Shown here piece by piece: positions 25,622 to 59,236 of a DNA stretch of 64,000 nt. Location: the NCBI GenBank assembly GCA_964417965.1, contig CAYQJX010000002.1, forward strand, positions 80,486-144,485, read 5' to 3'. The stretch comes from an uncultured Elusimicrobiaceae bacterium. Lineage in GTDB: Bacteria; Elusimicrobiota; Elusimicrobia; Elusimicrobiales; UBA9959. Position numbers and translations under genes: made by a program. Numbering within the stretch: position 1 is the first letter of the stretch; every line of letters starts with the position of its first letter. The notes below the pieces were generated by a model. The model saw nothing but the letters and a program-made list of their open reading frames with translations. It was not told where the DNA came from and did no database searches.

Positions 25622-25625
25622 GCCG

Positions 25626-26954: not shown

Positions 26955-27416
26955 TTGGACAACAGGATCGCAACCGTTAAGGTAGACCTTAAAAAATACA
27001 GCCTCGACGCCGCGCGCTACGCGGCCTACGCCCTGAGCGGCGAGGCTTTCGTTTTTATCAGCCGCGCCGGCGCCGCAGCCGTGGCCGTGTCGCTCTCGCC
27101 TAAAGGCGGCGGGTCCGGAGCCGCCCTGAAGGGCAAGTTCCTGGCGGAACTCGAGGATGAAAAACTGCGGGAAAAAATTGCCGCCGAGAACCGGGAGCTC
27201 AGGGAGTTCCTGACGCTGAAGGCGCTCTCCTCCCCGACCCCGGCCCCGGTCCCGGATTCCGGGCTTACCCCGGACCAGGAAAAAGAGCTGGCCGACCTTA
27301 TTTCCCAGGTCGAGAAAGAAATTAAAGAGGACGTCCGCGGAGGAGCCGCGGACCCGCTGGGGCTGACGAGCACTTGGGAAGACAAGTATGGCGCAAAAAA
27401 AGCCCGTAAAAAATAA
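26955..27416 (+). CDS. hxsD: HxsD-like small protein (copy 1)
   Basis: 153 aa. Contains KKYSLDAARYAAYALSGEAFVFI and FLAELEDEKLREKI..., which resembles the LLNDYxLRE-type signature I recall for HxsD. Overlaps the start of the HxsB-like gene. Confidence 0.55.
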   Translation: MDNRIATVKVDLKKYSLDAARYAAYALSGEAFVFISRAGAAAVAVSLSPKGGGSGAALKGKFLAELEDEKLREKIAAENRELREFLTLKALSSPTPAPVPDSGLTPDQEKELADLISQVEKEIKEDVRGGAADPLGLTSTWEDKYGAKKARKK

Positions 27417-28842: not shown

Positions 28843-29156
28843 AAAAGCAGACTGACGCGAAAGAAATAACTTTTGATTCCGCTGTCTATTCTAAAGAGGC
28901 CGTAGAGCTGGCGGCCTATGTCTTTGCCGGGCGCTGCGGCGTAAAAGTTTCGCCCGGCAAGAGCGCTTCGGTCGCGCGGCTGTCCGGGGGCGCGGAGCTT
29001 GACCGGCTGGCCGGGGAGTTCGCCAACGAGGCGCTCAACCAGCAGTGCCGCATAGACCTGGCAAAAAAGAATTCCAAGCTGGCCGGCATGATAGTGACCA
29101 AGGCGCTGTTGTCGGCCTGCGGCGAAACCAAGCCGCGCTTACGGGGGAGCAAATGA
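28839..29156 (+). CDS. hxsD: HxsD-like small protein (copy 2)
   Basis: 105 aa. Contains DSAVYSKEAVELAAYVFAGRCGVKV and EFANEALNQQCRIDLAKKNSKLAGMIVTKAL, the same pattern as copy 1. ATGA overlap with the hxsB-like stop. Confidence 0.5.
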   Translation: MKKQTDAKEITFDSAVYSKEAVELAAYVFAGRCGVKVSPGKSASVARLSGGAELDRLAGEFANEALNQQCRIDLAKKNSKLAGMIVTKALLSACGETKPRLRGSK

Positions 29157-33844: not shown

Positions 33845-33867
33845 ACGCCAGATTTGATAATATTTGA

Positions 33868-42668: not shown

Positions 42669-43739
42669 ATGAACTCATTGCTTGAAAAGAACGTAAAGTT
42701 CGCGACCGGCAGAACGCCCGGCCTGAACAAGGCCGTCCTCGCGGCGCGCCTCGCCAATATCCGCTGGCCCGTCAGCCTTAAGGCCCGGGTCTGCGAGGTT
42801 ACCGTCAATTCCGCCTGCAACAACCGCTGCCTGTTCTGCTACGCCGAACCGGGCTCCTTCGCGAACGGCCCGGAGCCCTCTCTGGAAGAGATCTTCAAGG
42901 CCCTCTACACGGGCCGCCGGCAGGGCTGCTGGATAGCCGCCGTTATAGGCGGGGAACCGACGCTGCGCGGCGATATCGACAAGGTGGCCTCCTTCGCCCG
43001 GAAGGCCGGCTACTCCTGCATAAAACTCTGCACCAACGGCGCGCGCCTGGCCGACCCGGCCTACGCCCGCCGCATGGCGGCCGCCGGCTTCAACATGTTC
43101 GACGTCTCCCTGCACGGCCATACCGCCCGGCTGCATGACCGGCTGGTCGGCGTGCCGGGCGCTTTCGACAAGGCCGTGCGGGCCATACGCAATGTCCGGG
43201 AGCTGGGCCGCGAGGCCGGCACCAACCTGGTAATAAACGCGCTGAACTATAAGCAGTTCCCGGAGTTTATGGACTTCGCCTATAACGGCCTGGGCGTCAA
43301 CTATTTCAATATCATCTACGGGCATTACCGCGGCGTGATGGCCTGCAACGAGAAGCTGCTGCGCGTGAATATTTCCAAAACCCTGCCCTGCATAATCAAA
43401 GGGATGGAAGTCTTTAAAAAGTCCGGCGTTCCCGCGCTCAACCGCGTGCTGGTCAACTTTACCCCCTGCCTGCTGCCGCGCCATATGAACCTCCTGGCCG
43501 ACTGGGAGTCCGACATTTCAGAAGGCGATCCCCTGATGCCGGCCGACGGGGCCGTGGTGAACATGGCCGAGATGAAGAACCGGCAGAGCTGCAAGCCCGC
43601 CGGCTGCGCGCGCTGCGCTCTGGACGCGCGCTGCCGAGGTTTCGACGCCGAATATATAAAACTCGCCGGCGGCCGGGAGTTCAAGCCGCTGGCAAAAGCG
43701 CCGCGCTCTTTCGCGGTAAAGACCCTTTTTGAGATATGA
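42669..43739 (+). CDS. Small radical SAM enzyme, HxsC-like paralog 1 of 7
   Basis: CNNRCLFC, GGEPTLRGD, SLHGHTARLHDRLVGVPGAF. The C-terminus is CARCALDARCRGFDAEYIKLAGGREFKPL. Confidence 0.8.
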   Translation: MNSLLEKNVKFATGRTPGLNKAVLAARLANIRWPVSLKARVCEVTVNSACNNRCLFCYAEPGSFANGPEPSLEEIFKALYTGRRQGCWIAAVIGGEPTLRGDIDKVASFARKAGYSCIKLCTNGARLADPAYARRMAAAGFNMFDVSLHGHTARLHDRLVGVPGAFDKAVRAIRNVRELGREAGTNLVINALNYKQFPEFMDFAYNGLGVNYFNIIYGHYRGVMACNEKLLRVNISKTLPCIIKGMEVFKKSGVPALNRVLVNFTPCLLPRHMNLLADWESDISEGDPLMPADGAVVNMAEMKNRQSCKPAGCARCALDARCRGFDAEYIKLAGGREFKPLAKAPRSFAVKTLFEI

Positions 43740-44797
43740 TCAAGCCCCGCAACTGCGAAGTCATCCTGAACTACGACTGCAACGCCAAATGCAGGTTCTG
43801 CTATCACCCGGAATCGGTGCTGAACCAGGTGGCGGAGCGCATGCCTTTCGCCAAGGCCGCCGAGGCGCTGTACAAGGGACGCCGGGAAAAATGCTGGGTG
43901 GCCTACCTGATAGGCGGCGAGATCACCATGCGCCCGGACCTGCCTAAGATTGTGCGGATAGCGCGGGACATGGGTTACCCCTATGTGCAGGTGATGAGCA
44001 ACGGTCTCAAGCTGGCCGACCCGGCTTACGCCAGGGAACTGGTGGAGGCCGGGGCCAATATTTTCCGCGTCTCGGTGCACGGCCCCGACGCCGCCACCCA
44101 CGACCGGCTGGTGGGCGTGCCGGGCGCTTTTAAAAAAGTGATGAAGGCCTTCGATAACCTCACGCGCCTTGGCGCCGAGCTCTCCGTCAACCACGCGCTC
44201 AACAAACAGAACTATAAGAAATTGAAGCCCCTGCTGGAGATCATCAGCGGGCGCTTCGGTATAGAGGATTTCAACGTGATCTTCCCGCATTACAACGGCA
44301 TGATGGCCGCCCGCGCTGCCGAGCTGAAGGTGAGCGTGATGCAGGCCGTGCCCTATGTGCGCGAGGCGCTGGCCTATCTTAAAGACTCCGGCGCGGAGAT
44401 CGAGGACACGGTGCTGGTGAACTTTACGCCCTGCAATCTCCCGGAGGCCGTGCACCTGATGGCCGAATGGGAGCGCCCCGCCGGCACCAGGGACGAGCCG
44501 CTGTTCCATATCGACGGCCGCGAAGACCGCATCCACGGCCTCAAGGAGCGCCTCTGCCTCAAGAACAAGGGCTGCGCTGCCTGCGTCTACAACAAGCGCT
44601 GCATGGGCTTTGAGAAATGGTATTCGGACCTCTTCGGCGCCCGCGAGTTCCGCCCCGTAAAGAAACCGGCCGAACCTTTCCCGCTGGTGCCTTCCCACAA
44701 CAGGTTGAAAAGGGCTCAGGCTTTATTGAAAGGGAAACTCGCCGGCGACGCGGGGGCCGGGTTAGCAAAACCGTCCCGGAGGCCGAGGCTTGCGTAA
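43736..44797 (+). CDS. Small radical SAM enzyme, HxsC-like paralog 2 of 7
   Basis: CNAKCRFC, GGEITMRPD, SVHGPDAATHDRLVGVPGAF, CAACVYNKRCMGFEKWYSDLFGAREFRPVKK. The last ~15 codons and the stop are supplied by repeat copy C. Confidence 0.8.
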   Translation: MIKPRNCEVILNYDCNAKCRFCYHPESVLNQVAERMPFAKAAEALYKGRREKCWVAYLIGGEITMRPDLPKIVRIARDMGYPYVQVMSNGLKLADPAYARELVEAGANIFRVSVHGPDAATHDRLVGVPGAFKKVMKAFDNLTRLGAELSVNHALNKQNYKKLKPLLEIISGRFGIEDFNVIFPHYNGMMAARAAELKVSVMQAVPYVREALAYLKDSGAEIEDTVLVNFTPCNLPEAVHLMAEWERPAGTRDEPLFHIDGREDRIHGLKERLCLKNKGCAACVYNKRCMGFEKWYSDLFGAREFRPVKKPAEPFPLVPSHNRLKRAQALLKGKLAGDAGAGLAKPSRRPRLA

Positions 44798-44866
44798 GCG
44801 CCGAGGCCGAGGGACGAGCGGCGGGCACGGTGTGTCCCGACCGCGTGTTTTGCGTTCCGGCCCCCG
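44751..44866 (+). repeat. Structured repeat family, copy C (116 nt)
   Basis: Closing stem cgggggccgg (44751-44760) / ccggcccccg (44857-44866). gttagcaaaac/gttttgcgttc and the cores gcttgcgtaagcgc and gggcacggtgtg align to the reverse complement of copy A. The stem differences are compensatory. Confidence 0.75.
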
Positions 44867-44897
44867 TGGCGCCAGGCAGACGGTTAGAGATTTATCA

Positions 44898-45980
44898 ATG
44901 AAGTTTAACAAGGAAATACTGAAGTTCAAGATAGCCGTCACTTCGGGCTGCTGCCTGAGGTGCACGCATTGCTTTATAGACAAGAGCCGCACCGAGACCA
45001 TCCCCGCTCCCGCCGCGCTGAAAGCCGTGGAGACCTTCCTGCGCTCCCCCGGCAAGACCAAGACCCTGGAAATTTACGGCGGCGAGCCGCTGATGGAATT
45101 CGAGCTGGTAAAGAAGATCGTAACCGCCGCCCGCGCGCTCGCGAAAAAACTCGGTAAGACGCTCGCCGTCTCCGTGGCCAGCAACGGCGTGCTCGCCGGC
45201 GCCGAGCAGCTGGACTGGCTGGCCCCCCGCGGCGTCCGCTTCGCCGTCAGCTTCTCCGGCAGCGGCCGCAGCCACGACCTGTCGCGCAAATTTGTTTCCG
45301 GCAAAGGCTCGCACGCCGCAGTAGAAAAGAAAATACCGCTCTTCCTCTCCAAGCTGGGAGAGGATCTCCACGTCATACTCTGCGTGCATCCGCGGCGCGC
45401 CGCGGCCGCGTACCAGGATTTCCTGCGCCTGGCCGCGGACGGCTTCCGCAATATCGGCATAGAATGTGTGCACGGCTTCCCCTGGCGGGCCGCCGACTAT
45501 AAAGCTTTCGGGGCAGCCATGAAGAAGATAACCGCCTATACCCTGGCGCATGCGGGGGACAAGTCCCCCGTGGTGCTGGAGCCGCTGCTGGAATTCCTCA
45601 GGGACAAAGAATTCAAAAATAGCTTCTGCCCTTTTCTGCGCGACCTGGAGCTGTTCCCCGACGGCACCCTCTCTTTCTATCCTTACCCTTTCCTGCGCAC
45701 TCCCGCGGAGCGCAAGGCCGCGGCCATCGGCACGGCTGAAGGGTGGGTGGCTGAAAAATATGTTTCCTGCGCCCCGGCCGCCGGTTCGCGCCGCTGCCTG
45801 GCCTGCGCCCGCTCCTATTACCGCCTGCCCGGCCTGGCCGACGGCAGCCGCGCCCACGCCCTGCGCACGGAAGTCTGCCGCGCCGCCGCGGAGGAGCTGG
45901 TGCGCAGGTCCGCCGCCGAGCCAGGCCTGAAAGCCTACCTGAAGCGGCTGATAAAACTTTTCAAGAAGGGTTACATCTGA
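44898..45980 (+). CDS. Radical SAM enzyme, AslB-like (paralog 2 of 3)
   Basis: The start at 44898 gives MKFNKEILKFKIAVTSGCCLRCTHC. Also YGGEPLMEF. The C-terminal Cys are CAPAAGSRRCLAC. The upstream part of the track ORF is encoded by the repeat. Confidence 0.75.
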   Translation: MKFNKEILKFKIAVTSGCCLRCTHCFIDKSRTETIPAPAALKAVETFLRSPGKTKTLEIYGGEPLMEFELVKKIVTAARALAKKLGKTLAVSVASNGVLAGAEQLDWLAPRGVRFAVSFSGSGRSHDLSRKFVSGKGSHAAVEKKIPLFLSKLGEDLHVILCVHPRRAAAAYQDFLRLAADGFRNIGIECVHGFPWRAADYKAFGAAMKKITAYTLAHAGDKSPVVLEPLLEFLRDKEFKNSFCPFLRDLELFPDGTLSFYPYPFLRTPAERKAAAIGTAEGWVAEKYVSCAPAAGSRRCLACARSYYRLPGLADGSRAHALRTEVCRAAAEELVRRSAAEPGLKAYLKRLIKLFKKGYI

Positions 45981-47371
45981 TGGCGAAGAGGGACGACCGC
46001 CCCATGGACTTCAACTTCGCCCGCCGCGGCGGAGGCAGGCTGCTGTCCAACGACTTTTCCATGACCGCGGAGCTGACAGCCGCGGGGTTGGCCCGTTTCG
46101 CCAGCGGCGCGGCCCTGCCGCCCGCCATGGATAAAGCGCTGGAGGCCAAAGGTTTCTTCGCCGGACGGCTGGATTTCGCCAGGCTGCTGCCGCGGCATTT
46201 CGCGGCCCTGCTGGCAGATTGGAAAGGCCCTAAAGTGCATATCGTAGCCGTGACCGCCGCCTGCGACCACGCCTGCCTTTATTGCGGCGCCTCGTCCGGC
46301 TCCGGCGGGCGTCACATGAGCCGCGCGACGGCTAAAAAAACGCTGGATTTCATCTTCAGCACCGGCGCGCCGGAGCTGGTTATAGAGTTCCAGGGCGGTG
46401 AACCCCTCCGCAATTTTGAAGTGGTGAAGTATCTGGTCGGGGAGGCCAAACGCCTCGCGGCGCGGCAGGGCCGCGGCCTGCATTTCTCCATGGTCTCCAA
46501 CCTGGCCGGGCTTACTTCGGAGAAGCTGGCTTTTCTTGCCGCTAACGGGGTTACGCTCTGCACCTCTCTCGACGGCCCCGCGGCTATCCATGACCGCGGC
46601 CGCAAATATTCCGGCGGTTCCAGCCACGCCGCCGCCGTCCGCGGTATAGCCCTGGTGCAGAAACTCGCGGCGGCCGGGGAGCTGGAATCTCTTAACGCCA
46701 TCTGCACCATCACTAAGTATTCCCTGGCGCAGCCGAAGGCAATAGTGGACGAATTTTTAAAGCGCGGCGTAAAGCGCGTGCAGCTGGGCCCGCTGGAGCC
46801 CATTGGCCGCGCCGCCCGCGCGGGCCTGGGCGTGACCCCGGAAGAATTCCTCGCTTTCTACGCCGAAGCCCTGGAGTACATGCTGCGCCTGAACCGGAAG
46901 GGCGTGGAGGTGTACGAGAAGGGCGCGCTGATGTTCCTGGGTCAGATGCTCGGCGGCGAACGCCCGCGCTACCAGAACCTGGACCTGCTCTACCGGCTGG
47001 CCTACGGGCCGGACGGTTCCGTCTACGGCTCCGACGAGGCGCGCCTGCTGGCCGCCGGCGGCAACGAATTTTTCAGGCTGGGGTCCGTGGCGGACTCTTT
47101 CTGCTCGCTGGCGTCCTCCCCGCTGGGCCGCACGCTGATCCTTTCCTGTTTTCCGCGGCTGACGCAGCCGCGCTGCGCGCGCTGTCCGCACAGCGCCTGG
47201 TGCCGGGTGTCCCCGGTGTATAACCACGCGGCGCAGGGCGGTTTCTGGGGCGACATGATGACCAACGGCCGCTGCCGGGTCTTCATGGGCGTCTCGGACC
47301 TGCTGCTGGAGAAACTGAAGACCCCGGCGTCGCGGAAAATACTGGAAGGCTGGGCGGAGAAATATCAATGA
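45980..47371 (+). CDS. hxsB: Radical SAM maturase, HxsB-like (paralog 2, degenerate SPASM)
   Basis: CDHACLYC and FQGGEPLRNF. In the C-terminal region several SPASM Cys present in paralogs 1 and 3 are replaced (NLDLLY for CPCG, GSDEA for TCDEG, CRVSP for CGVCP). Confidence 0.75.
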   Translation: MAKRDDRPMDFNFARRGGGRLLSNDFSMTAELTAAGLARFASGAALPPAMDKALEAKGFFAGRLDFARLLPRHFAALLADWKGPKVHIVAVTAACDHACLYCGASSGSGGRHMSRATAKKTLDFIFSTGAPELVIEFQGGEPLRNFEVVKYLVGEAKRLAARQGRGLHFSMVSNLAGLTSEKLAFLAANGVTLCTSLDGPAAIHDRGRKYSGGSSHAAAVRGIALVQKLAAAGELESLNAICTITKYSLAQPKAIVDEFLKRGVKRVQLGPLEPIGRAARAGLGVTPEEFLAFYAEALEYMLRLNRKGVEVYEKGALMFLGQMLGGERPRYQNLDLLYRLAYGPDGSVYGSDEARLLAAGGNEFFRLGSVADSFCSLASSPLGRTLILSCFPRLTQPRCARCPHSAWCRVSPVYNHAAQGGFWGDMMTNGRCRVFMGVSDLLLEKLKTPASRKILEGWAEKYQ

Positions 47372-49530
47372 AGGCCGCTATGGACATAGAAAGGCTGCTG
47401 GCCTGCGCCGACAGGGACTCCCTGCCGGAGGCTCCGCCCAACTACCCGCCCATGGCGGCCTGGCCGGAGCTGCGCGGCACGGAGAAAATAATTTCAGCCT
47501 GGCGGCGTTCCCTCAAATCCGACGGCGGCCGCAGGCCCGTGGTCTACGTGCACGTGCCTTTCTGCGAAACCCTCTGCCGCTTCTGCGGCTTCTATAAACT
47601 CCCGGCCGCGCCCGGCGCGGTAGACCGCTTCCTGGACGCGCTGGAGAAAGAAATAAAGCTCCTGGGGCCGCTCTTCAAGGGCCGTCCGCTCAGGTTCCTG
47701 TGCATAGGCGGCGGCACGCCCAGCCTGCTGACCATAGCGCAGCTGGACCGGATGTTTAAAATGCTGCGGGCTTATTTTAAAGTCACGCCCAAGACCCGCA
47801 TAGCCTTCGAGGCCAGCCCGAATACGCTGGACCCGGAGAAGCTGGCCTTCCTGAAGTCCGCCGGCGTGGAATGGCTGGCCATCGGCGTGCAGAGCTTCGA
47901 CCCCGCCCTGCTTAAAGGCCTCAACCGCCGCCAGGACCCGGCGCAGACGGTGGCGGTTATAAAGCAGGCCAAGGCCGCCGGCATAAAGCAGGTGGAGGTG
48001 GACCTGATGACCGGCCTGCCGGGCCAGACCGGTGAAAGTTTTCTGCGGGACGTCCGCACCGCGGCCGGGCTGGACGTGGAACGCGTCTATCTTTTCGATT
48101 TCCAGCCGCGCTGCGGCACCTCCGCCGGCGAGCAGGCCGGCTCGCTCAAGCGCGGCGCGCTGGAGGACGCCAGGGCCTGGCGCCGCCGGGGCATGGATAT
48201 TTTAGTGTCGAAGGGTTATAAAATGCGCTGTGGGCACTGGGTTTACAAGCGCAAGGGCGACTGGTGGCCCTACAGCTACGACCAGGGCGAGGAAGGGTCC
48301 TACTCGGTGCTCGGCCTGGGGCCCAGCGCCGTGTCCTACGCCATGAACGCCGCCCGCTACCGCAGCGTTTCCGACGAGAAGGTTTATGAGAGGACGCTGG
48401 CAGGCGGCGCGCTGCCGCCCGCCGCGGGCTGCCTGCTGAGCCAGCGCGACGAGATGGTGAACTTCGTGCTGCTCGACGCCCTGCACCGCGGGCAAGTCGA
48501 TAAGAGAAATTTCCGCCGCCGTTTCGGCCGTGGCCTGGCCGAGGTCTTTGGCGGCGAGATAAAGGCCGCCAAGGCGGCCGGTCTGGCCGCCGACTCCGGC
48601 CGGGCGCTGCTGGTGACGGACAGGGAGCGGGCCACGGTGGAGCTGCGCGGCGCGCTGTACTCCCCGGAGGTGCTGGAGCGCCTGTCGAAAATTTACGGCC
48701 GCGGGAACGCTCCCGGGCATGAGCGGCCCGCGGCCGCACCCCCGGCCTTCAACCGGCAGGCGGAGCACACTCATGAATGCCGCCTGCAGGCAGGGGCGCT
48801 GGAGGCGCTGCTTTACGGCGCGTCCCCCGGGCCGGCCAGGGCGGGCAGGGACCTGGCCCTGGAGCTGCTGCGGGCCGCACGGGCGGGGAGGAAAGAAGCC
48901 CTGCTGCTCTCGGGCGCGGCTTTGCCCGGCCTGGCCGAGATAGAGGCGGCGCGCTACGCGGCCGGAGCCGGTTTTAAAAATATTTCGCTGTTCTCCCGCC
49001 TGCCGGCCGGGGCTGATTTCTTCAGGAACCTGAAGGCCGCCGGGGTTTCCGGTTTTCTCTTCAGGTTCGGAGCTGTTGTGTCCAGGGAAGAGCTGGCCGC
49101 CGTGAAGGCCGCCGCCTCCTCCGGGCTGGAGGCCAGTGGCGTCTACGTGCCGGGCTCGGCGGCCTCCCGGGGCGCTCCCGCAGCCATGAAAAAACTTTCT
49201 GCGGCCGGAGCCGCCGGGTTTATAGTCTCCTTTCCGGAGGGCAAGGAGAATATAACCGCCGATTACGCGGCTCTCGTGCCGCTGGCGCGCGCCGCTGGCC
49301 GGCTGGGCGCGAGCTTCCTCCGGGCCCCGCTCTGCGTGCTGTACCCGGACTGGGAGCGCTCGCTGGACTGCCTCAGGGGCGGCCAGGGCGATGCCCGCGA
49401 ATCCGGCGGCAGCGCCGGGGCGGTAAAGCCCAAGCTCTGCCTGCAGTGCCGGTTCCTGCTCAAATGCCCCGGCCCGGCGCTCGGCTACGCCGAGAAATTC
49501 GGTTTCAGGGGACTTAAGACCATCAAATGA
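47368..49530 (+). CDS. Fusion of a HemN-like radical SAM domain with a degenerate HxsC-like domain lacking CxxxCxxC
   Basis: The N-terminal half has VYVHVPFCETLCRFCGFYK and LCIGGGTPSLLT. The C-terminal half aligns to the HxsC-like paralogs (LLLSGAALPGLAEIEAARYAAGAGFKNISLFSRLPAG...) and ends CLQCRFLLKCPGPALGYAEKFGFRGLKTIK. Confidence 0.75.
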   Translation: MKAAMDIERLLACADRDSLPEAPPNYPPMAAWPELRGTEKIISAWRRSLKSDGGRRPVVYVHVPFCETLCRFCGFYKLPAAPGAVDRFLDALEKEIKLLGPLFKGRPLRFLCIGGGTPSLLTIAQLDRMFKMLRAYFKVTPKTRIAFEASPNTLDPEKLAFLKSAGVEWLAIGVQSFDPALLKGLNRRQDPAQTVAVIKQAKAAGIKQVEVDLMTGLPGQTGESFLRDVRTAAGLDVERVYLFDFQPRCGTSAGEQAGSLKRGALEDARAWRRRGMDILVSKGYKMRCGHWVYKRKGDWWPYSYDQGEEGSYSVLGLGPSAVSYAMNAARYRSVSDEKVYERTLAGGALPPAAGCLLSQRDEMVNFVLLDALHRGQVDKRNFRRRFGRGLAEVFGGEIKAAKAAGLAADSGRALLVTDRERATVELRGALYSPEVLERLSKIYGRGNAPGHERPAAAPPAFNRQAEHTHECRLQAGALEALLYGASPGPARAGRDLALELLRAARAGRKEALLLSGAALPGLAEIEAARYAAGAGFKNISLFSRLPAGADFFRNLKAAGVSGFLFRFGAVVSREELAAVKAAASSGLEASGVYVPGSAASRGAPAAMKKLSAAGAAGFIVSFPEGKENITADYAALVPLARAAGRLGASFLRAPLCVLYPDWERSLDCLRGGQGDARESGGSAGAVKPKLCLQCRFLLKCPGPALGYAEKFGFRGLKTIK

Positions 49531-50423
49531 AACGCATCGACATAAAGATCGGCTTCGGCTGCAACAACATGTGCGATTTCTGCGCGCAGGGCTCCAAGCG
49601 TTATAAGGGCCCGGGCAAAAGCCTGGCCGAGATAAAGGCCGCGCTGGCGCGCGCCCGCAAGACCGGCGTGAACGCCGTGGTGTTCACCGGCGGCGAACCC
49701 ACCATCCACCCGGACCTGCTCGCCGCGGTAAAGGCCGCCAGGAAGATGGGCTACGACACCGTGCAGGTGCAGACCAACGGCCGCCGCTTCGCCTATTACG
49801 ATTATTGCCTGGCGCTCAAGAAGGCCGGCGTCACCGAGATGGGCCCTTCGCTGCACGGCTCCACGGCCGCCATCCACGAGGGCCTGACGCACGCCGAGGG
49901 CAGCTTCAAAGAAGGGGTGCAGGGCATCCTCAACTGCAAGAAGCTCGGCATGTACGTGCTGACCAATTCCGTGATCACCTCCCGCAACTACAAGGACCTG
50001 CCGGCCCTGGCCAAGCTGCTGGCGTACCTGAAGGTGGACCAGTTCCAGTTCGCCTTCGTGCACCTGGTCGGTTCCGCCTGGGAGAACCGCAAGTGGCTGA
50101 CGCCCAAAATGACGGCCGCGATGCCGTATATAAAAAAAGCGCTCGACGTGGGCCGCGCGGCCGGCCTGCACTGTTACACCGAAGCGATACCTTACTGCCT
50201 GATGAAAGGCTACGAGGACTGCGTAGCCGAACAGGTGATCCCCGAAGGCCCGGTGGCCGACGCGGACCTGTACATCGAGAGCTACGGCGACTACCGCCGC
50301 GGCGAGGGCAAAGTCAAAAGGGCCGAGTGCAAAAAGTGCGGCTGGTTCAAAGCCTGCGAGGGCCCCTGGCGCGAATACCCCGAGCTTTACGGCTGGAGCG
50401 AATTTAAACCGGTGAAGAAATGA
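49527..50423 (+). CDS. Small radical SAM enzyme, HxsC-like paralog 3 of 7
   Basis: CNNMCDFC, GGEPTIHPD, SLHGSTAAIHEGLTHAEGSF, CKKCGWFKACEGPWREYPELYGWSEFKPVKK. Confidence 0.85.
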   Translation: MKRIDIKIGFGCNNMCDFCAQGSKRYKGPGKSLAEIKAALARARKTGVNAVVFTGGEPTIHPDLLAAVKAARKMGYDTVQVQTNGRRFAYYDYCLALKKAGVTEMGPSLHGSTAAIHEGLTHAEGSFKEGVQGILNCKKLGMYVLTNSVITSRNYKDLPALAKLLAYLKVDQFQFAFVHLVGSAWENRKWLTPKMTAAMPYIKKALDVGRAAGLHCYTEAIPYCLMKGYEDCVAEQVIPEGPVADADLYIESYGDYRRGEGKVKRAECKKCGWFKACEGPWREYPELYGWSEFKPVKK

Positions 50424-51841: not shown

Positions 51842-51842
51842 T

Positions 51843-52736
51843 ATGCCCGATATAGCCGTCTGGAACAAATGCGACAACCGCTGCGTCATGTGTACCAACA
51901 TGACGTCTTTCGCGCTGCAGGACAGCGGCCAGTACCGGCTGAAGGCCCAGATAGAGAAAATGGAGCGCTACTTGAAAGGCCTGGGCCGGATCTACCTGAA
52001 GAACCCCGACAAGGCGGGCTACGTCAACCTGACCGGCGGGGAGCCCACCCTGCACCCGGACTTCTTCCCGCTGCTGGCCTATTTCAGGCGCCGCCTGCCC
52101 GGCCTGCCCATAACGCTGCTGTCCAACGGCCGCCGCTTCGCCGACCGCAAGTTCGCCGCCAGGTTCGCCGCCGCGGCGCGGCCGCCCTTCGGCGCGGCCA
52201 TAGCCCTGCACGGCCCGAACGCCAAAACGCACGACCCGGTGGCCGGCGTGCGCGGCGCCTTCGGCCAGACCGTGAAGGGGCTCCAGAATCTTTTCGAGCT
52301 GGCGCCGGGCCTGGCGATAGAGATACGCATAATCCTGCACAAGAAGACCATCGCCGCGCTGCCGGCTACACTGAAATTCCTGCTGGAAAAATTCCCCGAT
52401 ACTTCCCGCTACTCCGTTACGCTGATCCATTACGAGATAGAGGGCATGTCCGAGACCAACCACAGGTCGGTGGGTCTGAAGTTCGCCGCCTCCTCGAAGG
52501 TCCTGGCTAAAGCCCTGCCGCTGATAAGGCGCTTCGCCGACCTGCGTCTTTATCATTTCCCGCTCTGCCAGGTCTCGCCGGAGCTGCGCCCGCTGTGCCG
52601 CGTCACGCTGCCGCGCGAGGACAGGGTTTACCCGCCGGTCTGCTCGCGCTGCGCCGTTAAACGGAAGTGCCTGGGCCTGATGCTGGAATATTTCAAGAAG
52701 TTCGGGGCCGCCGAACTCAAGGCGATACGGAAATGA
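51843..52736 (+). CDS. Small radical SAM enzyme, HxsC-like paralog 4 of 7
   Basis: CDNRCVMC, GGEPTLHPD, ALHGPNAKTHDPVAGVRGAF, CSRCAVKRKCLGLMLEYFKKFGAAELKAIRK. Confidence 0.85.
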   Translation: MPDIAVWNKCDNRCVMCTNMTSFALQDSGQYRLKAQIEKMERYLKGLGRIYLKNPDKAGYVNLTGGEPTLHPDFFPLLAYFRRRLPGLPITLLSNGRRFADRKFAARFAAAARPPFGAAIALHGPNAKTHDPVAGVRGAFGQTVKGLQNLFELAPGLAIEIRIILHKKTIAALPATLKFLLEKFPDTSRYSVTLIHYEIEGMSETNHRSVGLKFAASSKVLAKALPLIRRFADLRLYHFPLCQVSPELRPLCRVTLPREDRVYPPVCSRCAVKRKCLGLMLEYFKKFGAAELKAIRK

Positions 52737-53884
52737 AGAACGTCTCCCTTATCTTCGTCGCCGTCTTCACCGCCTGGTGCGTTTCCGTGGTGAGCCGCGA
52801 CCTGGCCACCCGGAAAATCCCTAACGCGCATATAAAAGGCGGCCTGGCCATCTTCGCCGGGTTCCTCGCCGTCTTCGGCCTCTATACCGTGCTGGGCTAC
52901 GCCGGCAAGGAGCCAGTCTTCCTGAACTGGAATTTTTACCCGCTGCTCGCCGCGCACGTCTTCTGGTCGGCGCTGGCCGGGATCATACTCTGGTATGCCG
53001 AGTTCTGGCCGGCCGGGGACGCCAAGTTCTTCATCCTGGTGTCGGCCTCGCTGCCGCTGGCCAACCCCGAGCTGCGCAATTTCCCGCATTACCTGTTCCT
53101 GAGCCTGCTGATAAATATCTTCGTGGCGGCCGCCCTGTGGGCCGTGGGCAGCTACGTGGCCTCCGGCTTCCAGAGCGCCTCCCCGTCGTATTTCTTCGGC
53201 GAGCTGTGGGGGGACGTGAAGAAAAGACTGGGCATGCTGACGGAAGGCAAGAACAAGCTGCTCGCCGCCGCCAGCGTGGTCAACCTGGGCTTCCTGTTCC
53301 TGCTGCAGCAGATCCTCAACATGGAGGCGCGCGGTTTCCTAGCCCGCTTCATAGGCCGCACCGACGTGCTTTTCTTTTTCATGTTCATCCTGTGGGACAA
53401 GATAGGCGGCGTGTTCGCCAGCCGCCGCTGGCTCTATATCAGCATGGCCTCCTACGCCGTCTATCTCATAAGCGGCTACTTCCTGTTCCCCGACCATCTC
53501 ATGGTCATGGCCCTGGCCTCGCTCAAGAACGTCTTCCGCTTCAGCCTGCTATTGTTCTTCGGGCGCTTCATGCTGGAATTCCTGATGGAGAAAAAGGACA
53601 TCCAGAACCTCACCGCCCGCGAGCTGCAGCCCGGCATGGTGCTCTCCACCAAAGCCGCCCGCACCCTCAAGGAGAATGCCGCCTTCGAAGGGGCCTTCGA
53701 CGACTGTTTTCGTGACGGCCTCACTCCCGACCAGGTAGCCGAATTGAAGGATTGGATGGGCAAACTCACCGTCCACGAACCCAAGATAGAGATAGTTGTC
53801 GGGCGGCCTTTCGCGCTCTGGATCTTCGCCGGCGCCGCGCTGCTGCTGGCGCTGGACGGCAACATCACGAGGTTCTTTAAATGA
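52733..53884 (+). CDS. A24-family (prepilin peptidase/CpaA-like) aspartic intramembrane peptidase with extended C-terminus
   Basis: The start at 52733 gives MKNVSLIFVAVF. First Asp motif SRDLATRKIPN. Second Asp motif WPAGDAKFFILV. 383 aa, about twice the size of a CpaA-type enzyme, with extra TM segments and a ~90-aa hydrophilic insert. Confidence 0.75.
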   Translation: MKNVSLIFVAVFTAWCVSVVSRDLATRKIPNAHIKGGLAIFAGFLAVFGLYTVLGYAGKEPVFLNWNFYPLLAAHVFWSALAGIILWYAEFWPAGDAKFFILVSASLPLANPELRNFPHYLFLSLLINIFVAAALWAVGSYVASGFQSASPSYFFGELWGDVKKRLGMLTEGKNKLLAAASVVNLGFLFLLQQILNMEARGFLARFIGRTDVLFFFMFILWDKIGGVFASRRWLYISMASYAVYLISGYFLFPDHLMVMALASLKNVFRFSLLLFFGRFMLEFLMEKKDIQNLTARELQPGMVLSTKAARTLKENAAFEGAFDDCFRDGLTPDQVAELKDWMGKLTVHEPKIEIVVGRPFALWIFAGAALLLALDGNITRFFK

Positions 53885-54807
53885 GCCTGAAGAAGAAGCT
53901 CAAGATAGTGCTGTTCACGGGCTATGCCTGCAACAATAACTGCGCCTTCTGCATAGACGCGGACAAGCGCGGCCTGCCCCAGAAGACCACTCCCGAGCTC
54001 CTCTCCGAAGTCCTGCGCGCCGCGAAGAAAGGCGCCGACATCCTTGAGATAATCGGCGGCGAAGCCACCATTCGCCCCGACTTCAGCTCCGTAGTCGCCG
54101 CCGCCAAGAAACTCGGGATAAAAGAAGTCGCCTGCGCCACCAACGGCCGCGTCTTCGCCGATCCCGCCGCCGCCAGGCGCATAGTCGCCGCCGGCATAGA
54201 TTCCCTTATTTTCTCCGTGCACGGCCCCGACGCCCGCATCCACGACGCCCTTACCCGCTCGCCCGGCAGTTTCGCCCAGCTGAAAAAAGGCCTGGCCAAC
54301 CTGAAGGCCCTCGGCTTTTGTTCCATAAACGGCAACACCACCGTGGTAAAGCGCAACATGGCCGCCCTGCCGCGCCTCGCGGCGTTCTATGTGCGCCAAG
54401 GCGTGCGCAACGTGGAGTACATCTTCGTAGACCCTAACTACGGCGGCGCGAAGAACGATTTTGAAACCCTCGTGCCGCGCATCTCCGCTGCCGCCCCCTA
54501 TATGCGCGCCGCGCTGGCCATTGGCCGCCGGGCGGGCCTGGACCAGTGGAAGGCGCGCTACGTGCCGCTGTGCCATTTTGCTGACTGCCTGGACCAGATC
54601 AGCGAGCTGAATGAAAAAAAACTTTTTCTGACCGAGCACTGGGCCCCGGATTTCAAGAACACCGACGCCATCGGTTCCCGCGCCGAGGTGGCGCGCGCCA
54701 AGACCGCCCGCTGCCGGGGCTGCGCCCTGTACCGGGCCTGCGAAGGCATCTGGGTGGAATACCTCAAGCGCTTCGGCGACGGAGAGCTGAAGCCGGTGAA
54801 AAAATGA
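53881..54807 (+). CDS. Small radical SAM enzyme, HxsC-like paralog 5 of 7
   Basis: CNNNCAFC, GGEATIRPD, SVHGPDARIHDALTRSPGSF, CRGCALYRACEGIWVEYLKRFGDGELKPVKK. Confidence 0.85.
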   Translation: MSLKKKLKIVLFTGYACNNNCAFCIDADKRGLPQKTTPELLSEVLRAAKKGADILEIIGGEATIRPDFSSVVAAAKKLGIKEVACATNGRVFADPAAARRIVAAGIDSLIFSVHGPDARIHDALTRSPGSFAQLKKGLANLKALGFCSINGNTTVVKRNMAALPRLAAFYVRQGVRNVEYIFVDPNYGGAKNDFETLVPRISAAAPYMRAALAIGRRAGLDQWKARYVPLCHFADCLDQISELNEKKLFLTEHWAPDFKNTDAIGSRAEVARAKTARCRGCALYRACEGIWVEYLKRFGDGELKPVKK

Positions 54808-55805
54808 AGACCCCCGACCACCTGGTCATCTACCTCAGCGGGCGCTGCAACCTGGCCTGTGCCTACTGCTACGCGCGGGGCGTGGACAGGGGGACCATTT
54901 CAGCGGCCGCCCTGCGTTCCGCCCTGGCCGCCTTCGCGGCCGCGCGCCCGGCCGAACCCAAGTTCACCATACTGGGCGGCGAGCCGCTGCTCTGCCGCGA
55001 GCGCCTGGCCCAGGCCCTGGCCGGGATAAGGCAGCACTTCGGCCCCGGCACTCCCGTTCACGTTTTCACCAACGGCCTCCTGCTGAAAAAAGGCGAGGCC
55101 GCCGCGCTGCTGAAGAAAGGCGTACGGCTGACGGTCAGCCTGGACGGCCGGCCCGGCGCCGGGCGCCCGGCGGCAATTGCCGGTCTGCCGCCCGCGCTGC
55201 GGAGCCGGGTTTCGGTCAGCGCCGTGGTTTCACCGGCGAACGCGGGGGAGTTGCCGGAGAATATCCTTTACCTGCTGGACCAGGGCTACACGCGCCTGGC
55301 CTGGTCGCCCGATATCACGGCCAGGTGGGACAAGGCCGCCCTGCGCGCCCTGCGCGCCTCGGCGAAAGCCCTGCTGCTGGAGTACCTGCGCCGCCTTAAG
55401 AACGGCTCCGGGGTCTGGGAACTGGCCAACGGTTACGAGGCGGTGGCCCTGGCCGCGCGGGGCGAGCGCCCCGGGCCCTGCCGCAACATAGCGCTGGCGC
55501 CGGACGGCTGTTTCTACCCTTGCGATAAAATGCTCTCGGCGCCAGGCAGGGAGCTGAAAAAATTCAGGATAGCGGCGGACGGGGCGGGCCGCGAGAAATT
55601 CTTCGCGCTGGCGCGGCGGGCCGGGCTGAAGGCCGCGCAGTCGATGTGCCCGGTGGCCCCCTGGGCCGCGGCGCGCTTCGGCGCGGTCATAAAAACTTTG
55701 CCGGCCGGCCAGGCCGCGGCCAGGAGCGAAGCCGCCCGCTGGCTGGCAGCGGCGGCGCGGGCGGGGCTGGCAAGCCCGGCCTTCAGGCGCCTGCACGGGA
55801 TCTGA
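54804..55805 (+). CDS. Radical SAM enzyme, AslB-like with partial SPASM/twitch region (paralog 3 of 3)
   Basis: CNLACAYC, LGGEPLLCRE, PCRNIALAPDGCFYPCDKML. Confidence 0.8.
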   Translation: MKTPDHLVIYLSGRCNLACAYCYARGVDRGTISAAALRSALAAFAAARPAEPKFTILGGEPLLCRERLAQALAGIRQHFGPGTPVHVFTNGLLLKKGEAAALLKKGVRLTVSLDGRPGAGRPAAIAGLPPALRSRVSVSAVVSPANAGELPENILYLLDQGYTRLAWSPDITARWDKAALRALRASAKALLLEYLRRLKNGSGVWELANGYEAVALAARGERPGPCRNIALAPDGCFYPCDKMLSAPGRELKKFRIAADGAGREKFFALARRAGLKAAQSMCPVAPWAAARFGAVIKTLPAGQAAARSEAARWLAAAARAGLASPAFRRLHGI

Positions 55806-55806
55806 T

Positions 55807-57000
55807 ATGGCTAAAAAAGAGAACGGTAAATGTTACGAGCTCATCCTCAACTATAACTGCAACGCGCGCTGCCTGTTCTGCTCGCAGGGGGACTTCGACA
55901 AATCCCGCAACGCGCCGTTCGAGGCTATCGCCCGCAATATCTATTCGGCACGGCGGGACGGCTATACCCGCCTCGGCCTCACCGGCGGCGAGCCGCTGGT
56001 GCGCCCGGACATCCTGAAGGTCATCGCCCTGGGCAAGTCCGTCGGTTTCGATTTCATCCGGGTGCAGACCAACGGCATAAAACTGGCGGACCCGGCCTTC
56101 TGCCGCGCGCTGGTGAAGGCCGGCCTCACTTTCTGCAAGTTCTCGTTCACCACCGACAAGGCCGCCGAGCACGACCGGCTGGTAGGAGTGCCGGGGGCGC
56201 TGAAGAAGGCCTTGGCAGGTCTCGCCAACCTGCGCCGGCTCAAGATCCGCCTCGGCACCAATATCCTGGTGAACCGGCTCAACTACCGCCGCCTGCCGGA
56301 GATCATCCGCTTCTACATGGAGCGCGGCATCACCAACTTCGTCGTCATCTACCCGGTCTATATCGGCGCCATGGCCGACAACGCCGGGGAGTACGGCGTA
56401 AGCCTGCCGGACTGCCAGCCTTACTTCCTGGAGGCGGTGCGCATGATGGAGGCCGCGGGGCTGGGCGGGGAGATCCTCTTCCTGAACACGCCGCCCTGTT
56501 TTCTCAAAGGCCGCGAGAGCCTGGCCATCGGCCTGGACGTCTTTAACACCGTGGTCACCGACCCCGACGGGGTGCGCACCGACCTGGACGCCAACGCCGA
56601 CGCCTCCAAGGCCAAAGGCCGGCCATGCCGGAGCTGCGCGCTGGCGAAAAAATGCCGCGGGGCGGACAAGCATTACCTGAAGGTTTTCGGCTGGGAAGGT
56701 TTTGAGCCGGTGCGCAAGCCCGGCGCTAAAAAAGCCGCGGCGCCGGAGGGCAGGGTTTTCTTTTCCGACAACGAGCGCTGCCTGGTGGAGATCCTGCGGC
56801 AGAAAAAAGAGGTGTCTACCGGCGAAGCCCTGGCCCTGGCCAAAAAAATAGTGCTGTGCCGGGACTGCTCCGACGGCAACGCGGTGATGAGCTCGGCCGA
56901 GCGGCTGGCGCGCAAAGGCCTGGTAAAGAGCCGCTTCGCCGGGGGGAAGTATTACTGGTCCCTCACCCGGCCCTACGAGAAGATAAAGAAATGGCTTTAA
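55807..57000 (+). CDS. Small radical SAM enzyme, HxsC-like paralog 6 of 7, with C-terminal winged-helix-like extension
   Basis: CNARCLFC, GGEPLVRPD, HDRLVGVPGAL, CRSCALAKKCRGADKHYLKVFGWEGFEPVRK. A ~95-aa tail follows (ERCLVEILRQKKEVSTGEALALAKKI...LARKGLVKSRFAGGKYYWSL). Confidence 0.8.
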   Translation: MAKKENGKCYELILNYNCNARCLFCSQGDFDKSRNAPFEAIARNIYSARRDGYTRLGLTGGEPLVRPDILKVIALGKSVGFDFIRVQTNGIKLADPAFCRALVKAGLTFCKFSFTTDKAAEHDRLVGVPGALKKALAGLANLRRLKIRLGTNILVNRLNYRRLPEIIRFYMERGITNFVVIYPVYIGAMADNAGEYGVSLPDCQPYFLEAVRMMEAAGLGGEILFLNTPPCFLKGRESLAIGLDVFNTVVTDPDGVRTDLDANADASKAKGRPCRSCALAKKCRGADKHYLKVFGWEGFEPVRKPGAKKAAAPEGRVFFSDNERCLVEILRQKKEVSTGEALALAKKIVLCRDCSDGNAVMSSAERLARKGLVKSRFAGGKYYWSLTRPYEKIKKWL

Positions 57001-57001
57001 G

Positions 57002-58288: not shown

Positions 58289-58390
58289 AGGGTTCGCCGG
58301 CTTCGGGGGCCTTATGCGCGGCCCCGCGTGAAATGTTATTATAGCGGTAGTGGAACATTTGTTGCAAACCGCGACGGCGAAACCAGTCGA

Positions 58391-59236
58391 ATGTCCCTGA
58401 TACACCTATTTAGAAAGTGCAACCAGCGTTGCGTGTTCTGCTCCTGGCCGGAGGAGGGGGGGCGCGGGCCGGAAGCCGGCCTGCGCGCTTGGTTGAAGGA
58501 GATCTCCGCCATGCCCGCCGGGCTGGTACAGCTCTCCGGCGGCGAGCCGCTGCTGGCCGGCGCCTATAACCTGTGCCTGCTGCTCGGGGCCGCCAGGCGG
58601 CTCGGCCGCCCGGTAGAACTGCAGACCAACGCCCTGGCCGCGGCCGCCATGCCGCAGGCCGACCTGCTCAAGCTGGCCGGCGCCCTCAACGCCGCCGGCG
58701 GCTACTTCAACGTAAATTTCCCGGCCGCCTCCCAGGCGCTGGACTATAAGATAACGCGCGCCCGGGGCGGCTTCAAGAAGCGGCTGGCCGGGGTGCGGCG
58801 GCTGATGAAAGCCGGGGCGAAAGTGCGCCTCACCCACGTTATCAGTTCGCTCAATTACAAGGCCCTGCCCGCCTTCGCCGCCCTCGCGGCGGGGAGCCTG
58901 AAGGGCGCGGCCTGGATACAGTTCAGCTATATAAAAGGCGCGGGCCGGGCCGAAGACGGAACGTTCATCCCGGAATATTCTAAAGTGCAGCCCTATTTGG
59001 AAAAAGCCCTGGCGGCCTGCGCCAGGGCCGGCCTCCATTGCGAAGTGGACCATGTCCCGCCCTGCCGCCTCGGGGAATTCTGGCGGCTTAACGTGGACAT
59101 AGAGAAAATGAAGAAAGGCCTGAAGGGGCCGCACCTGCTGGAGAAAAAGCGCGTTGGAGCCTGCAGGGGCTGCCGCTACGCCGGAGTCTGCCCTGGTCCG
59201 AGGAAAGATTATATAGCCGTGCATAAAACTTTATGA
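58391..59236 (+). CDS. Small radical SAM enzyme, HxsC-like paralog 7 of 7 (most divergent)
   Basis: MSLIHLFRKCNQRCVFC, SGGEPLL, CRGCRYAGVCPGPRKDY. Only the C-terminal 281 aa of the 621-aa track ORF are credible. Confidence 0.75.
   Translation: MSLIHLFRKCNQRCVFCSWPEEGGRGPEAGLRAWLKEISAMPAGLVQLSGGEPLLAGAYNLCLLLGAARRLGRPVELQTNALAAAAMPQADLLKLAGALNAAGGYFNVNFPAASQALDYKITRARGGFKKRLAGVRRLMKAGAKVRLTHVISSLNYKALPAFAALAAGSLKGAAWIQFSYIKGAGRAEDGTFIPEYSKVQPYLEKALAACARAGLHCEVDHVPPCRLGEFWRLNVDIEKMKKGLKGPHLLEKKRVGACRGCRYAGVCPGPRKDYIAVHKTL

Follow-up and report, generated by a model that had tools for sequence, protein, structure and literature searches.

Seven HxsC-like radical SAM enzymes encoded in an enlarged His-Xaa-Ser locus of an uncultured Elusimicrobiaceae bacterium

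Results

Gene content of the locus

We analysed a stretch of 64,000 nucleotides (nt) from an uncultured Elusimicrobiaceae bacterium (assembly GCA_964417965.1, contig CAYQJX010000002.1, positions 80,486 to 144,485; hereafter the window), in which a preliminary description had pointed out seven small radical S-adenosylmethionine (SAM) enzymes and had tentatively equated them with HxsC of the His-Xaa-Ser (HxS) systems. All seven coding sequences were found at the starts given there on the forward strand, and the exact proteins are on record in public assemblies; close relatives of the window proteins were found in Elusimicrobia bacterium GWB2_63_22. The seven proteins are named C1 to C7 in the following (Table 1).

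The genes lie in a His-Xaa-Ser locus that spans about 27-62 kb of the window and contains approximately 17 radical SAM genes and one open reading frame (ORF) with HxS repeats. An HxsA4-type precursor and two HxsB proteins passed the cutoffs of the respective models, whereas two HxsD-like ORFs fell below theirs. Between 42669 and 57000, the genes are arranged in the order C1, C2, a PapB-like enzyme, HxsB2, a HemN-like protein fused to a putatively dead HxsC-like domain, C3, HxsB3, C4, a membrane protein, C5, another PapB-like enzyme, and C6. Neighbouring genes in this region overlap by 4 or 7 nt or sit 1 nt apart, except for one 100-nt gap; hence, the region looks like a single operon. A membrane protein encoded on the minus strand is located between C6 and C7.

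Table 1 Features of the His-Xaa-Ser locus in the window (curated cutoffs in parentheses; aa, amino acids).
Feature	Position	Strand	Match or remark
HxsD-like ORF upstream of HxsB1	26955..27416	+	TIGR03976 41.8 bits (50)
HxsB1, SPASM radical SAM maturase	27388..28842	+	TIGR03978 469.6 bits (370)
HxsD-like protein, 105 aa	28839..29156	+	TIGR03976 36.8 bits (50); HxsD_rel 30.5 bits (41)
Protein X, membrane-anchored, Cys-rich	29153-30217		Conserved between HxsD and HxsA4/C3 in Elusimicrobia
HxsA4-type precursor, 110 aa	30229..30561	+	NF038313 66.6 bits (55)
PapB/AslB-like radical SAM enzyme, short	30657..31754	+	PapB 92.9 bits (340); directly downstream of HxsA4
C1, HxsC-like radical SAM enzyme, 356 aa	42669..43739	+	HxsC4 107.8 bits; HxsC 95.2 bits
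C2, HxsC-like radical SAM enzyme, 353 aa	43736..44797	+	41% identical to C1
Second PapB/AslB-like radical SAM enzyme	44898..45980	+	PapB 94.7 bits; HxsB 69.7 bits
HxsB2, HxsB-like SPASM radical SAM enzyme	45980..47371	+	TIGR03978 312.6 bits (370)
HemN-like radical SAM protein with putatively dead HxsC-like domain	47368-49530	+	Radical_SAM, HemN_C, hhalign
Degenerate HxsC-like domain, ends ...CLQCRFLLKCPGPALGYAEKFGFRGLKTIK	48730..49530	+	hhalign against the seven-paralog alignment
C3, HxsC4-like radical SAM enzyme, 298 aa, ends KPVKK	49527..50423	+	HxsC4 142.5 bits
HxsB3, bona fide HxsB between C3 and C4	50420..51841	+	TIGR03978 432.6 bits (370)
C4, most canonical-HxsC-like, 297 aa, ends LKAIRK	51843..52736	+	TIGR03977 161.6 bits
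Polytopic membrane protein, A24-like	52733..53884	+	PF01478 22.8 bits (26.5), E = 1.3e-4
C5, HxsC4-like radical SAM enzyme, 308 aa, ends KPVKK	53881..54807	+	HxsC4 149.5 bits
Third PapB/AslB-like radical SAM enzyme	54804..55805	+	PapB 63.0 bits; HxsC 43.3 bits
C6, HxsC-like radical SAM enzyme, 397 aa, block-3 HG lost	55807..57000	+	HxsC4 88.0 bits; HxsC 84.3 bits
C7, most divergent HxsC-like radical SAM enzyme, 281 aa	58391..59236	+	Best match TIGR03977, 60.9 bits
SufS-like cysteine desulfurase	59233..60483	+	TIGR01979 247.1 bits (475); closes the array in most related loci

Conserved motifs of the seven proteins

The pairwise identity among C1-C7 was 24-41% with BLASTP E-values of 1e-4 to 1e-85, and all of them matched the Pfam family Radical_SAM (PF04055) at 43.0-87.6 bits, compared with a gathering score of 29.5, with CxxxCxxC being present. 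Invariant in the seven were CxxxCxxC, GGE, one upstream Cys, CxxCx5CxG, and a Tyr five residues further on. CxxxCxxC, GGE, and the four further Cys residues were also invariant in an alignment of 46 sequences and in canonical HxsC. When the six-frame translation of the window was searched for C..C.....C.G, eight occurrences were obtained against 0.19 expected, every one of them at the C-terminus of an HxsC-like protein (the seven and the domain fused to the HemN-like protein).

Four blocks had been described as shared by the family. The Cys motif and GGE were indeed common to all seven, but block 3, the C-terminal tail, and the Asp of block 2 were not universal. Block 3, HG....H(D/E), was not found in C6 (FSFTTDKAAEHD) or in C7, and as literally written it fits C1 and C2 only. 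Furthermore, C7 has neither the FG..(F/L)KPVKK tail (it ends ...DYIAVHKTL) nor the block-2 Asp. The exact termination of three proteins after (K/R)K was confirmed for C3, C4, and C5, which end with KPVKK or KAIRK.

Outside these motifs, C1 has an N-terminal extension of approximately 35 aa and 16 residues beyond its tail EFKPLAK, and C2, whose start overlaps the C1 stop by 4 nt, has a basic extension of approximately 40 aa beyond its tail EFRPVKK. C7 retains CxxxCxxC, GGE, and CxxCx5CxG. Its gene calls vary among public assemblies, with 281 aa in one case and 241 aa on a near-identical contig; because the shorter call would drop CxxxCxxC, the 281-aa start appears to be the sensible one.

Family assignment

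The seven proteins and the three AslB-like proteins of the locus, ten in total, were scored against the NCBIfam models for HxsC (TIGR03977, cutoff 267.9 bits) and HxsC4 (NF038332, cutoff 500 bits). One or the other was the top NCBIfam model for each of the seven, in agreement with the preliminary equation with HxsC, but all of the scores were below the curated cutoffs (Table 2). HxsC4 was the best model for C1, C2, C3, C5, and C6, as well as for the orthologs of C3 and C5 in other phyla. Two annotated HxsC proteins from plasmids, which were used as controls, reached 365.0 and 384.2 bits on TIGR03977. In an alignment with three annotated HxsC proteins, C1-C7 start at or shortly ahead of the strand carrying CxxxCxxC. 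The elements common to both groups are CxxxCxxC, GGEPT, the upstream Cys, and CxxCx5CxG(F/x); the continuation EY..FG..EFKPVKK is not present in canonical HxsC.

Table 2 Profile scores and phylogenetic placement of the seven paralogs.
Paralog	HxsC (bits)	HxsC4 (bits)	Clade	Bootstrap
C1	95.2	107.8	Elusimicrobia only	100%
C2	80.5	88.8	Elusimicrobia only	100%
C3	97.9	142.5	45 sequences: Elusimicrobia, Myxococcota, CPR, DPANN, Omnitrophica, Spirochaetes	98%
C4	161.6	53.2	Groups with canonical HxsC	Only 51%
C5	81.0	149.5	Includes CPR, DPANN, and a 'Pseudomonadales' metagenome-assembled genome	99%
C6	84.3	88.0	Elusimicrobia only; orthologs of 386-431 aa	88-99%
C7	60.9	20.4	Elusimicrobia only	72-100%

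Of the seven, only C4 resembles HxsC in the narrow sense, and its grouping with the canonical proteins had a bootstrap value of only 51%. C4 carries CDNRCVMC and the segment IEIRIILHKKT, and it is located directly after an HxsB: its gene starts 1 nt after the HxsB3 stop and is the only one of the seven immediately downstream of an hxsB. C3 precedes HxsB3, and C1, C2, C5, C6, and C7 are not adjacent to any HxsB. C4 showed 26-30% identity to annotated plasmid HxsC proteins over 91-98% of the length, and its relatives were found in 426 plasmid records; most of the 15 listed were annotated as hxsC. The AslB-like trio (30657, 44898, and 54804), which had been named as an alternative candidate for HxsC, matched PapB-type SPASM maturases best, and among the three only 54804 had an HxsC match, which was weak (Table 1). 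From their motifs and profile matches, we classify the seven proteins as HxsC-superfamily enzymes.

Predicted metal sites and structure

The predicted SAM-cleaving [4Fe-4S] site, consisting of CxxxCxxC and GGE, is canonical in each of the seven proteins. From their conservation, the four additional invariant Cys residues, which are C224, C268, C271, and C277 in C3, presumably ligate a single auxiliary [4Fe-4S] cluster within a small subdomain at the C-terminus; mutation of the equivalent CxxC in E. coli HxsC (C342/C345) lowered the processing of HxsA and abolished defence (PMC13128918). The tail, ...EY..FG..EF.P, would represent the structural end of this Cys subdomain.

CxxCx5C corresponds to the first three Cys residues of CX2CX5CX3C in the SPASM/twitch enzymes (SuiB, PqqE, anSME, and HxsB), whereas the position of the fourth is occupied here by W, F, or another residue. 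Pfam searches with the C-terminal segments gave nothing meaningful, and no SPASM hit was obtained with the full proteins or the segments. When the C-terminal region was compared with the SPASM region of HxsB by hhalign, only 13 columns, those of the Cys motif, were aligned (7% probability); consequently, a common origin of the tail domain and SPASM is not supported.

The AlphaFold2 model of C3 had a predicted local distance difference test (pLDDT) value of 95.2 and a predicted template modeling score of 0.92. Foldseek searches with this model matched only the radical SAM core (BlsE, GDGT-MAS, SkfB, and viperins), and the longest alignments were those with the SPASM enzyme SuiB (template modeling score of 0.70, whole model). 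For BlsE, a cytosylglucuronate decarboxylase (PDB 7vob), the radical SAM core was matched with a profile E-value of 3e-28 and a Foldseek E-value of 5e-14 (identity of 29% over 179 columns), but the match was confined to the N-terminal 180 residues or so. Searching the PDB by sequence revealed neither a structure of the HxsC family nor a relative of the C-terminal half containing the Cys motif and the tail.

C6 possesses a conserved C-terminal extension of approximately 80 aa (residues ~321-397, window positions 56767-57000) with invariant C325, C351, and C354. In the AlphaFold2 model of C6 (pLDDT 87.9), residues 321-386 are in the order H-E-H-H-E-E (H, helix; E, strand), a winged-helix-like topology. 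The extension may serve to bind peptides or nucleic acids. Pfam and the PDB gave no significant match to it; a winged helix of eS10 had a non-significant E-value of 0.04.

The C-terminal tail in a wider family of fused modules

The tail is not peculiar to this locus. An exhaustive profile search yielded at least 4,489 cluster representatives (50% identity) at E <= 1e-30, and the tail proved to be the signature of a large HxsC/HxsC4-like family. The strict pattern combining CxxxCxxC, CxxCx5CxG, and the tail was satisfied by 131 of 264 modules, and the terminal KK is a local feature of Elusimicrobia. Two or three full modules were contained in 107 of the 150 best family representatives (for example, P0102 of 1070 aa and P0103 of 1318 aa), with up to five matched stretches in some. 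In such fusions the next module starts right after ...(F/Y)G..E(F/L).P, indicating that the tail marks the structural end of the domain.

A C5-type domain is module 2 of the fused protein P0108, and some fusions (among proteins P0102-P0251) include radical SAM domains of the SPASM and B12-binding types as well. P0116 and P0215 consist of two HxsC-like modules and further radical SAM domains, including the B12-binding type; judging from their domain composition, they repeat the gene set of the locus in a single chain. At the DNA level, uninterrupted two-module ORFs were present in the related loci L036 (11555-13765), L055 (14761-16644), and L066 (8707-11292). The fused modules were found in AT-rich uncultured lineages, namely DPANN and the Candidate Phyla Radiation (CPR) among the loci fetched. 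A literature search on tandem radical SAM proteins gave nothing relevant, and the sole protein with two radical SAM domains that it met was the F420 enzyme FbiC.

A degenerate eighth copy

In addition to the seven, an eighth copy that the preliminary description had overlooked was detected as a full-length HxsC-like domain forming the last 266 or so residues of the HemN-like protein at 47368, the N-terminal part of which comprises Radical_SAM and HemN_C. This domain was aligned with the profile of the seven paralogs by hhalign over 253 columns, with a probability of 99.9% and an E-value of 2.3e-31. CxxxCxxC and GGE have been lost, and C...CxxCx5CxG..Y..FG..LKTIK is retained, followed by the stop codon. 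Judged by these residues, the HemN-like radical SAM enzyme bears an HxsC-like module that is catalytically dead, and this fusion is kept in other Elusimicrobia.

Phylogeny and synteny

C3 is the most widely conserved paralog, with orthologs in 68 genomes (Elusimicrobia, Myxococcota, CPR, DPANN, and Omnitrophica). Related loci were seeded on C3 and extended ±10 kb; the 68 loci with C3 orthologs were fetched, ORFs were called, and 280 HxsC-like domains were extracted using a profile of the seven paralogs. A neighbor-joining tree was constructed from 186 domains and 289 columns with capped distances and 100 bootstraps (Table 2).

As for the choice between amplification within the locus and assembly of distinct lineages, the tree and the synteny revealed distinct, old lineages. 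Every paralog formed an orthogroup of its own, conserved at 56-97% identity with a syntenic position in other Elusimicrobia (dozens of metagenome-assembled genomes), and the gene order in the two closest relatives (L004 and L005) was as in the window. Orthologs of C3, C4, and C6 were 52-97% identical across more than 100 database clusters, in which the NCBI name is simply 'radical SAM protein'. Since the seven are so dissimilar to each other, each has its own syntenic orthogroup, and C3 and C5 cross phyla, these results suggest that the paralogs are old and separately maintained rather than products of recent amplification. The absence of C1, C2, C6, and C7 outside Elusimicrobia is based on the C3-seeded sampling and a protein search with C6.

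The precursor peptide and the other genes of the locus

HxsA4 consists of a Lys-rich N-terminus, FLNSEEGK, a hydrophobic helix, and 13 consecutive H-x-S units (SHGSHG...), and ends with RGGWC. It was the sole HxS-repeat ORF detected by a regular expression in all six frames of the window (match at 30421-30537). At the DNA level, the repeats correspond to an imperfect tandem array of a 9-nt unit (30421-30541, approximately 12.7 copies, 69% matches), and their number varies among the HxsA4 peptides of related loci. In our own comparison, the basic N-terminus, ...EEGK, and the hydrophobic helix resemble a class III signal peptide. The order HxsB, HxsA4, and an enzyme of the 30657 type recurs in DPANN and other loci (L037, L054, L058, L066, and L067).

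The HxsD-like gene at 28839 overlaps the HxsB1 stop by 4 nt and is kept after HxsB1 in related loci; an ORF similar by eye to the one upstream of HxsB1 was seen in locus L009. Protein X is fast-evolving and without a family match. When it was checked as an alternative substrate, it showed a conserved HG..WG and a pattern of Cys residues but no HxS repeats. In the compact loci described below, it sits where HxsA would be expected.

An apparent insert (31751-41217) separates the HxsA4 module from the HxsC-like array and was found only in some related loci (L003 and L005). Encoded in it are two radical SAM proteins of the B12-binding type, a protein resembling flavin amine oxidases, a sugar-1-phosphate nucleotidyltransferase, and a membrane/beta-propeller protein, as well as, on the minus strand, a GT2 glycosyltransferase and a TPR protein. 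The array is preceded by a minus-strand HemN-like gene, which brings the HemN-like genes of the locus to two.

The membrane protein at 52733 has an AGDAKF motif. Most of the related Elusimicrobia loci encode it directly after C4, and three loci of other phyla gave weak matches of 31-56 bits. The SufS-like enzyme is the probable source of sulfur for the many Fe-S clusters; a TPR protein follows its gene at the end of the array. The upstream flank is of a housekeeping nature (lipid A genes, RelA/SpoT, GlgB, BamA-like, and PhoH-like), and the downstream flank contains an M20 peptidase and ornithine carbamoyltransferase. The DNA of the window is high in GC, and the GC content of the locus is similar to that of the flanks. 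At 25037-26015, two small adjacent genes resemble by eye a secreted guanyl-specific ribonuclease and a barstar-like inhibitor, and the same pair flanks the locus in L009.

Related loci in other genomes

HxsA4-like SHG-repeat peptides were found together with HxsB beside HxsC-like arrays in DPANN, CPR, Omnitrophica, and a metagenome-assembled genome labelled Pseudomonadales. Within Elusimicrobia, HxsA4 occurred only in extended loci that also carry the PapB-like enzymes, C1/C2, and HxsB2/HxsB3, and HxsA4 is accompanied more consistently by the 30657-type enzyme and C1/C2 than by C3-C7. Compact Elusimicrobia loci (e.g. L009-L016, L019, and L020; 7308-16000 in L009) have the order HxsD-like ORF, HxsB1, HxsD, protein X, C3, C4, the membrane protein, C5, C6, C7, and SufS, without C1/C2, the PapB-like enzymes, and HxsB2/3. 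A regular expression for the NifH P-loop, applied to all loci, matched L045, which holds a true NifH-like protein, and L039, whose protein was rejected by eye as looking like an ArsA-like ATPase.

Discussion

With moderate confidence, we propose that the seven proteins are anciently diverged, non-redundant paralogs of the HxsC/HxsC4 type in an enlarged 'type 4' locus and that they jointly mature HxsA4. For the seven copies, the preliminary description had put forward either serial, position-specific modification of the repeat peptide or several chemistries. Non-redundant, cooperating roles are suggested by the ancient divergence of the paralogs and by their fusion in other lineages, and the joint modification of HxsA4 is proposed by analogy, on account of the co-location of HxsA4 and HxsB in several phyla, the fusions, and the operon structure. 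The presence of a single HxS peptide in the window argues for one system rather than several. In such a system, the seven enzymes would act together, probably in physical contact, with three HxsB-type SPASM enzymes, three short PapB-like enzymes, two HxsD-like adaptors, and the dead HxsC-like domain on the HemN-like enzyme as their partners. Several different radical-mediated modifications would be installed on the (S-H-G)n repeats of HxsA4 before its N-terminal processing and export, and the A24-like membrane protein of the array may perform this processing. C4 would take the role of HxsC proper, C3 and C5 would act as the widely conserved HxsC4-like pair, and C1, C2, C6, and C7 would be additions specific to Elusimicrobia.

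A number of observations weigh against this proposal. In twelve compact Elusimicrobia loci, no ORF with HxS repeats or rich in His was found within 10 kb; therefore, the core five enzymes may be independent of HxsA4, or the gene for the peptide may lie at another site. In the Myxococcota loci, a C3-type gene is accompanied only by a single, longer HxsC-like gene, and neither HxsA nor HxsB is encoded nearby. In L045 (5173-13480), three HxsC-like genes, one of them C3-type, lie directly upstream of a NifH-NifD fusion gene and a NifK-like gene, alongside an A24-like membrane gene. Furthermore, the N-terminal 75-120 residues or so of canonical HxsC (378-401 aa) are missing from all seven proteins, and the predicted auxiliary cluster has only the conserved cysteines as its basis. 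The closest solved structure by both sequence and fold, BlsE, acts on a nucleoside sugar and not on a peptide. Even for canonical HxsC, what has been reported of the reaction is a shift of +8 Da (PMC13128918).

The compact, Myxococcota, and L045 loci make a serious rival of the idea that the substrate of the array, or at least of its core C3-C7, is not a peptide but, for example, a cofactor, a tetrapyrrole, a sugar-nucleotide, or a lipid, with HxsA4 being handled mainly by HxsB and the PapB-like enzymes. We nevertheless consider this unlikely on the whole. It would account for the maintenance of C3-C7 in compact loci without a nearby HxS peptide, and it agrees with the composition of the locus, in which two HemN-like genes, two B12-binding radical SAM genes, and flavin amine-oxidase-like, sugar nucleotidyltransferase, and GT2 genes are found, and with a sugar decarboxylase being the best solved relative. 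The Nif adjacency in L045 also matches the radical-SAM-rich neighbourhoods of the 'group VI nitrogenase paralogs' (bioRxiv 10.1101/765248), whereas no Nif-like genes occur in the window or in the 10 kb downstream. On the other hand, the only curated relatives, HxsC and HxsC4, are peptide or protein maturases, the compact loci still have HxsB1 and HxsD directly upstream of C3, and HxsA4-like peptides adjoin genes of the C3 and C5 types in distant phyla.

Two further explanations appear highly improbable to us. If the copies had arisen by recent amplification within the locus and were largely redundant or several of them decaying, the large number of homologous genes in one operon, the clear loss of the catalytic motifs from the C-terminal copy in the 47368 protein, and the disappearance of some conserved blocks from C6 and C7 would be readily understood. 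This idea is contradicted by the phylogeny and the synteny: C1-C7 share little identity, the orthogroup of each is conserved at the same position across dozens of Elusimicrobia genomes, C3 and C5 predate or cross phylum boundaries, and CxxxCxxC, GGE, and the four-Cys motif are intact in all seven. There is similarly slight reason to see in the locus a stack of several independent HXS anti-phage systems within a mobile defence island. Canonical HxsABCD is anti-phage and often plasmid-borne, and the window has three HxsB-type genes; but there is a single HxsA-type peptide, and the HxsC-like genes far outnumber HxsB. Moreover, the flanks are housekeeping genes (PhoH-like, lipid A, and BamA-like) partly common to related genomes, no integrase or transposase was seen among the ORFs examined, the GC content does not depart from that of the flanks, and PADLOC (2023 version, which holds no HXS models) returned only generic hits to viperin-type pVip radical SAM proteins.

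The locus shares with canonical HXS systems (TIGR03976-03979) a His-Xaa-Ser substrate, an HxsB SPASM enzyme, a small HxsD-like protein, HxsC-type enzymes with CxxxCxxC and the C-terminal second-cluster motif CxxCx5CxG, and an HxsC placed directly after HxsB (here C4). The canonical system is an anti-phage system that blocks the entry of phage DNA, with HxsC binding HxsD, and more than 99.8% of such systems comprise four genes in the order D-B-C-A (Li et al., Nat Commun 2026, PMC13128918). In contrast, the present locus has seven HxsC-like proteins and one presumably dead copy, three HxsB-like and three PapB-like enzymes, and HemN-like and B12-binding radical SAM enzymes in addition. HxsA of the canonical system is a peptidoglycan-binding protein with 5 repeats, whereas the peptide here is of the 110-aa HxsA4 type with 13 repeats, and the locus is chromosomal and vertically conserved.

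A type 4 variant is already known at the level of annotation from the 'rare' HxsA4 and HxsC4 models of NCBI. The peptide of the window passes the former, but the best HxsC4 score is far below the cutoff (Table 2), so that none of the seven is a curated member. No paper mentioning HxsA4 or HxsC4 was found in our literature search, nor was anything published on multi-copy arrays. The group VI nitrogenase paralogs have radical-SAM-rich neighbourhoods in Elusimicrobia, Gracilibacteria, and Myxococcales (Meheust et al. 2020, bioRxiv 10.1101/765248); the phyla overlap with those holding C3 orthologs, and many radical SAM genes, including B12-binding types and HemN_C fusions, are present there as well, although no Nif-like genes accompany the present locus. 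The radical SAM genes in that study were neither classed as HxsC-like nor linked to His-Xaa-Ser peptides. As far as we found, the array of multiple paralogs, the putatively dead eighth module, the multi-module fusions in CPR and DPANN, and the link to Nif paralogs had not been described. Our analysis thus joins two separate observations, namely the Hxs systems and the suites of radical SAM genes beside group VI nitrogenase-like genes.

The His-Xaa-Ser system was unexplained for 15 years; the four-gene form has only recently been tied to the blocking of phage DNA entry. To our knowledge, approximately 17 radical SAM genes beside one 110-residue peptide would place the locus among the most radical-SAM-dense ones, and it provides a defined, compact target for heterologous reconstitution. 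The HxsC fold belongs to a large family that typically occurs as arrays or multi-module fusions in uncultured Elusimicrobia, CPR, and DPANN. Because the genomes of these lineages are often small, the retention of several radical SAM modules implies an important product.

As a more speculative extension, which we regard as possible but doubtful, the HxsC4-like family may constitute a conserved multi-enzyme radical SAM 'assembly line' that makes a heavily modified product of a new class from a (Ser-His-Gly)n peptide, with a Nif-like reductase recruited in some genomes. If so, the line would be laid out as about 17 separate genes in Elusimicrobia and condensed in CPR and DPANN into proteins of two to three modules, with up to five matched stretches, and it could yield either an envelope peptide that is cross-linked and binds metal or a cofactor derived from a peptide.

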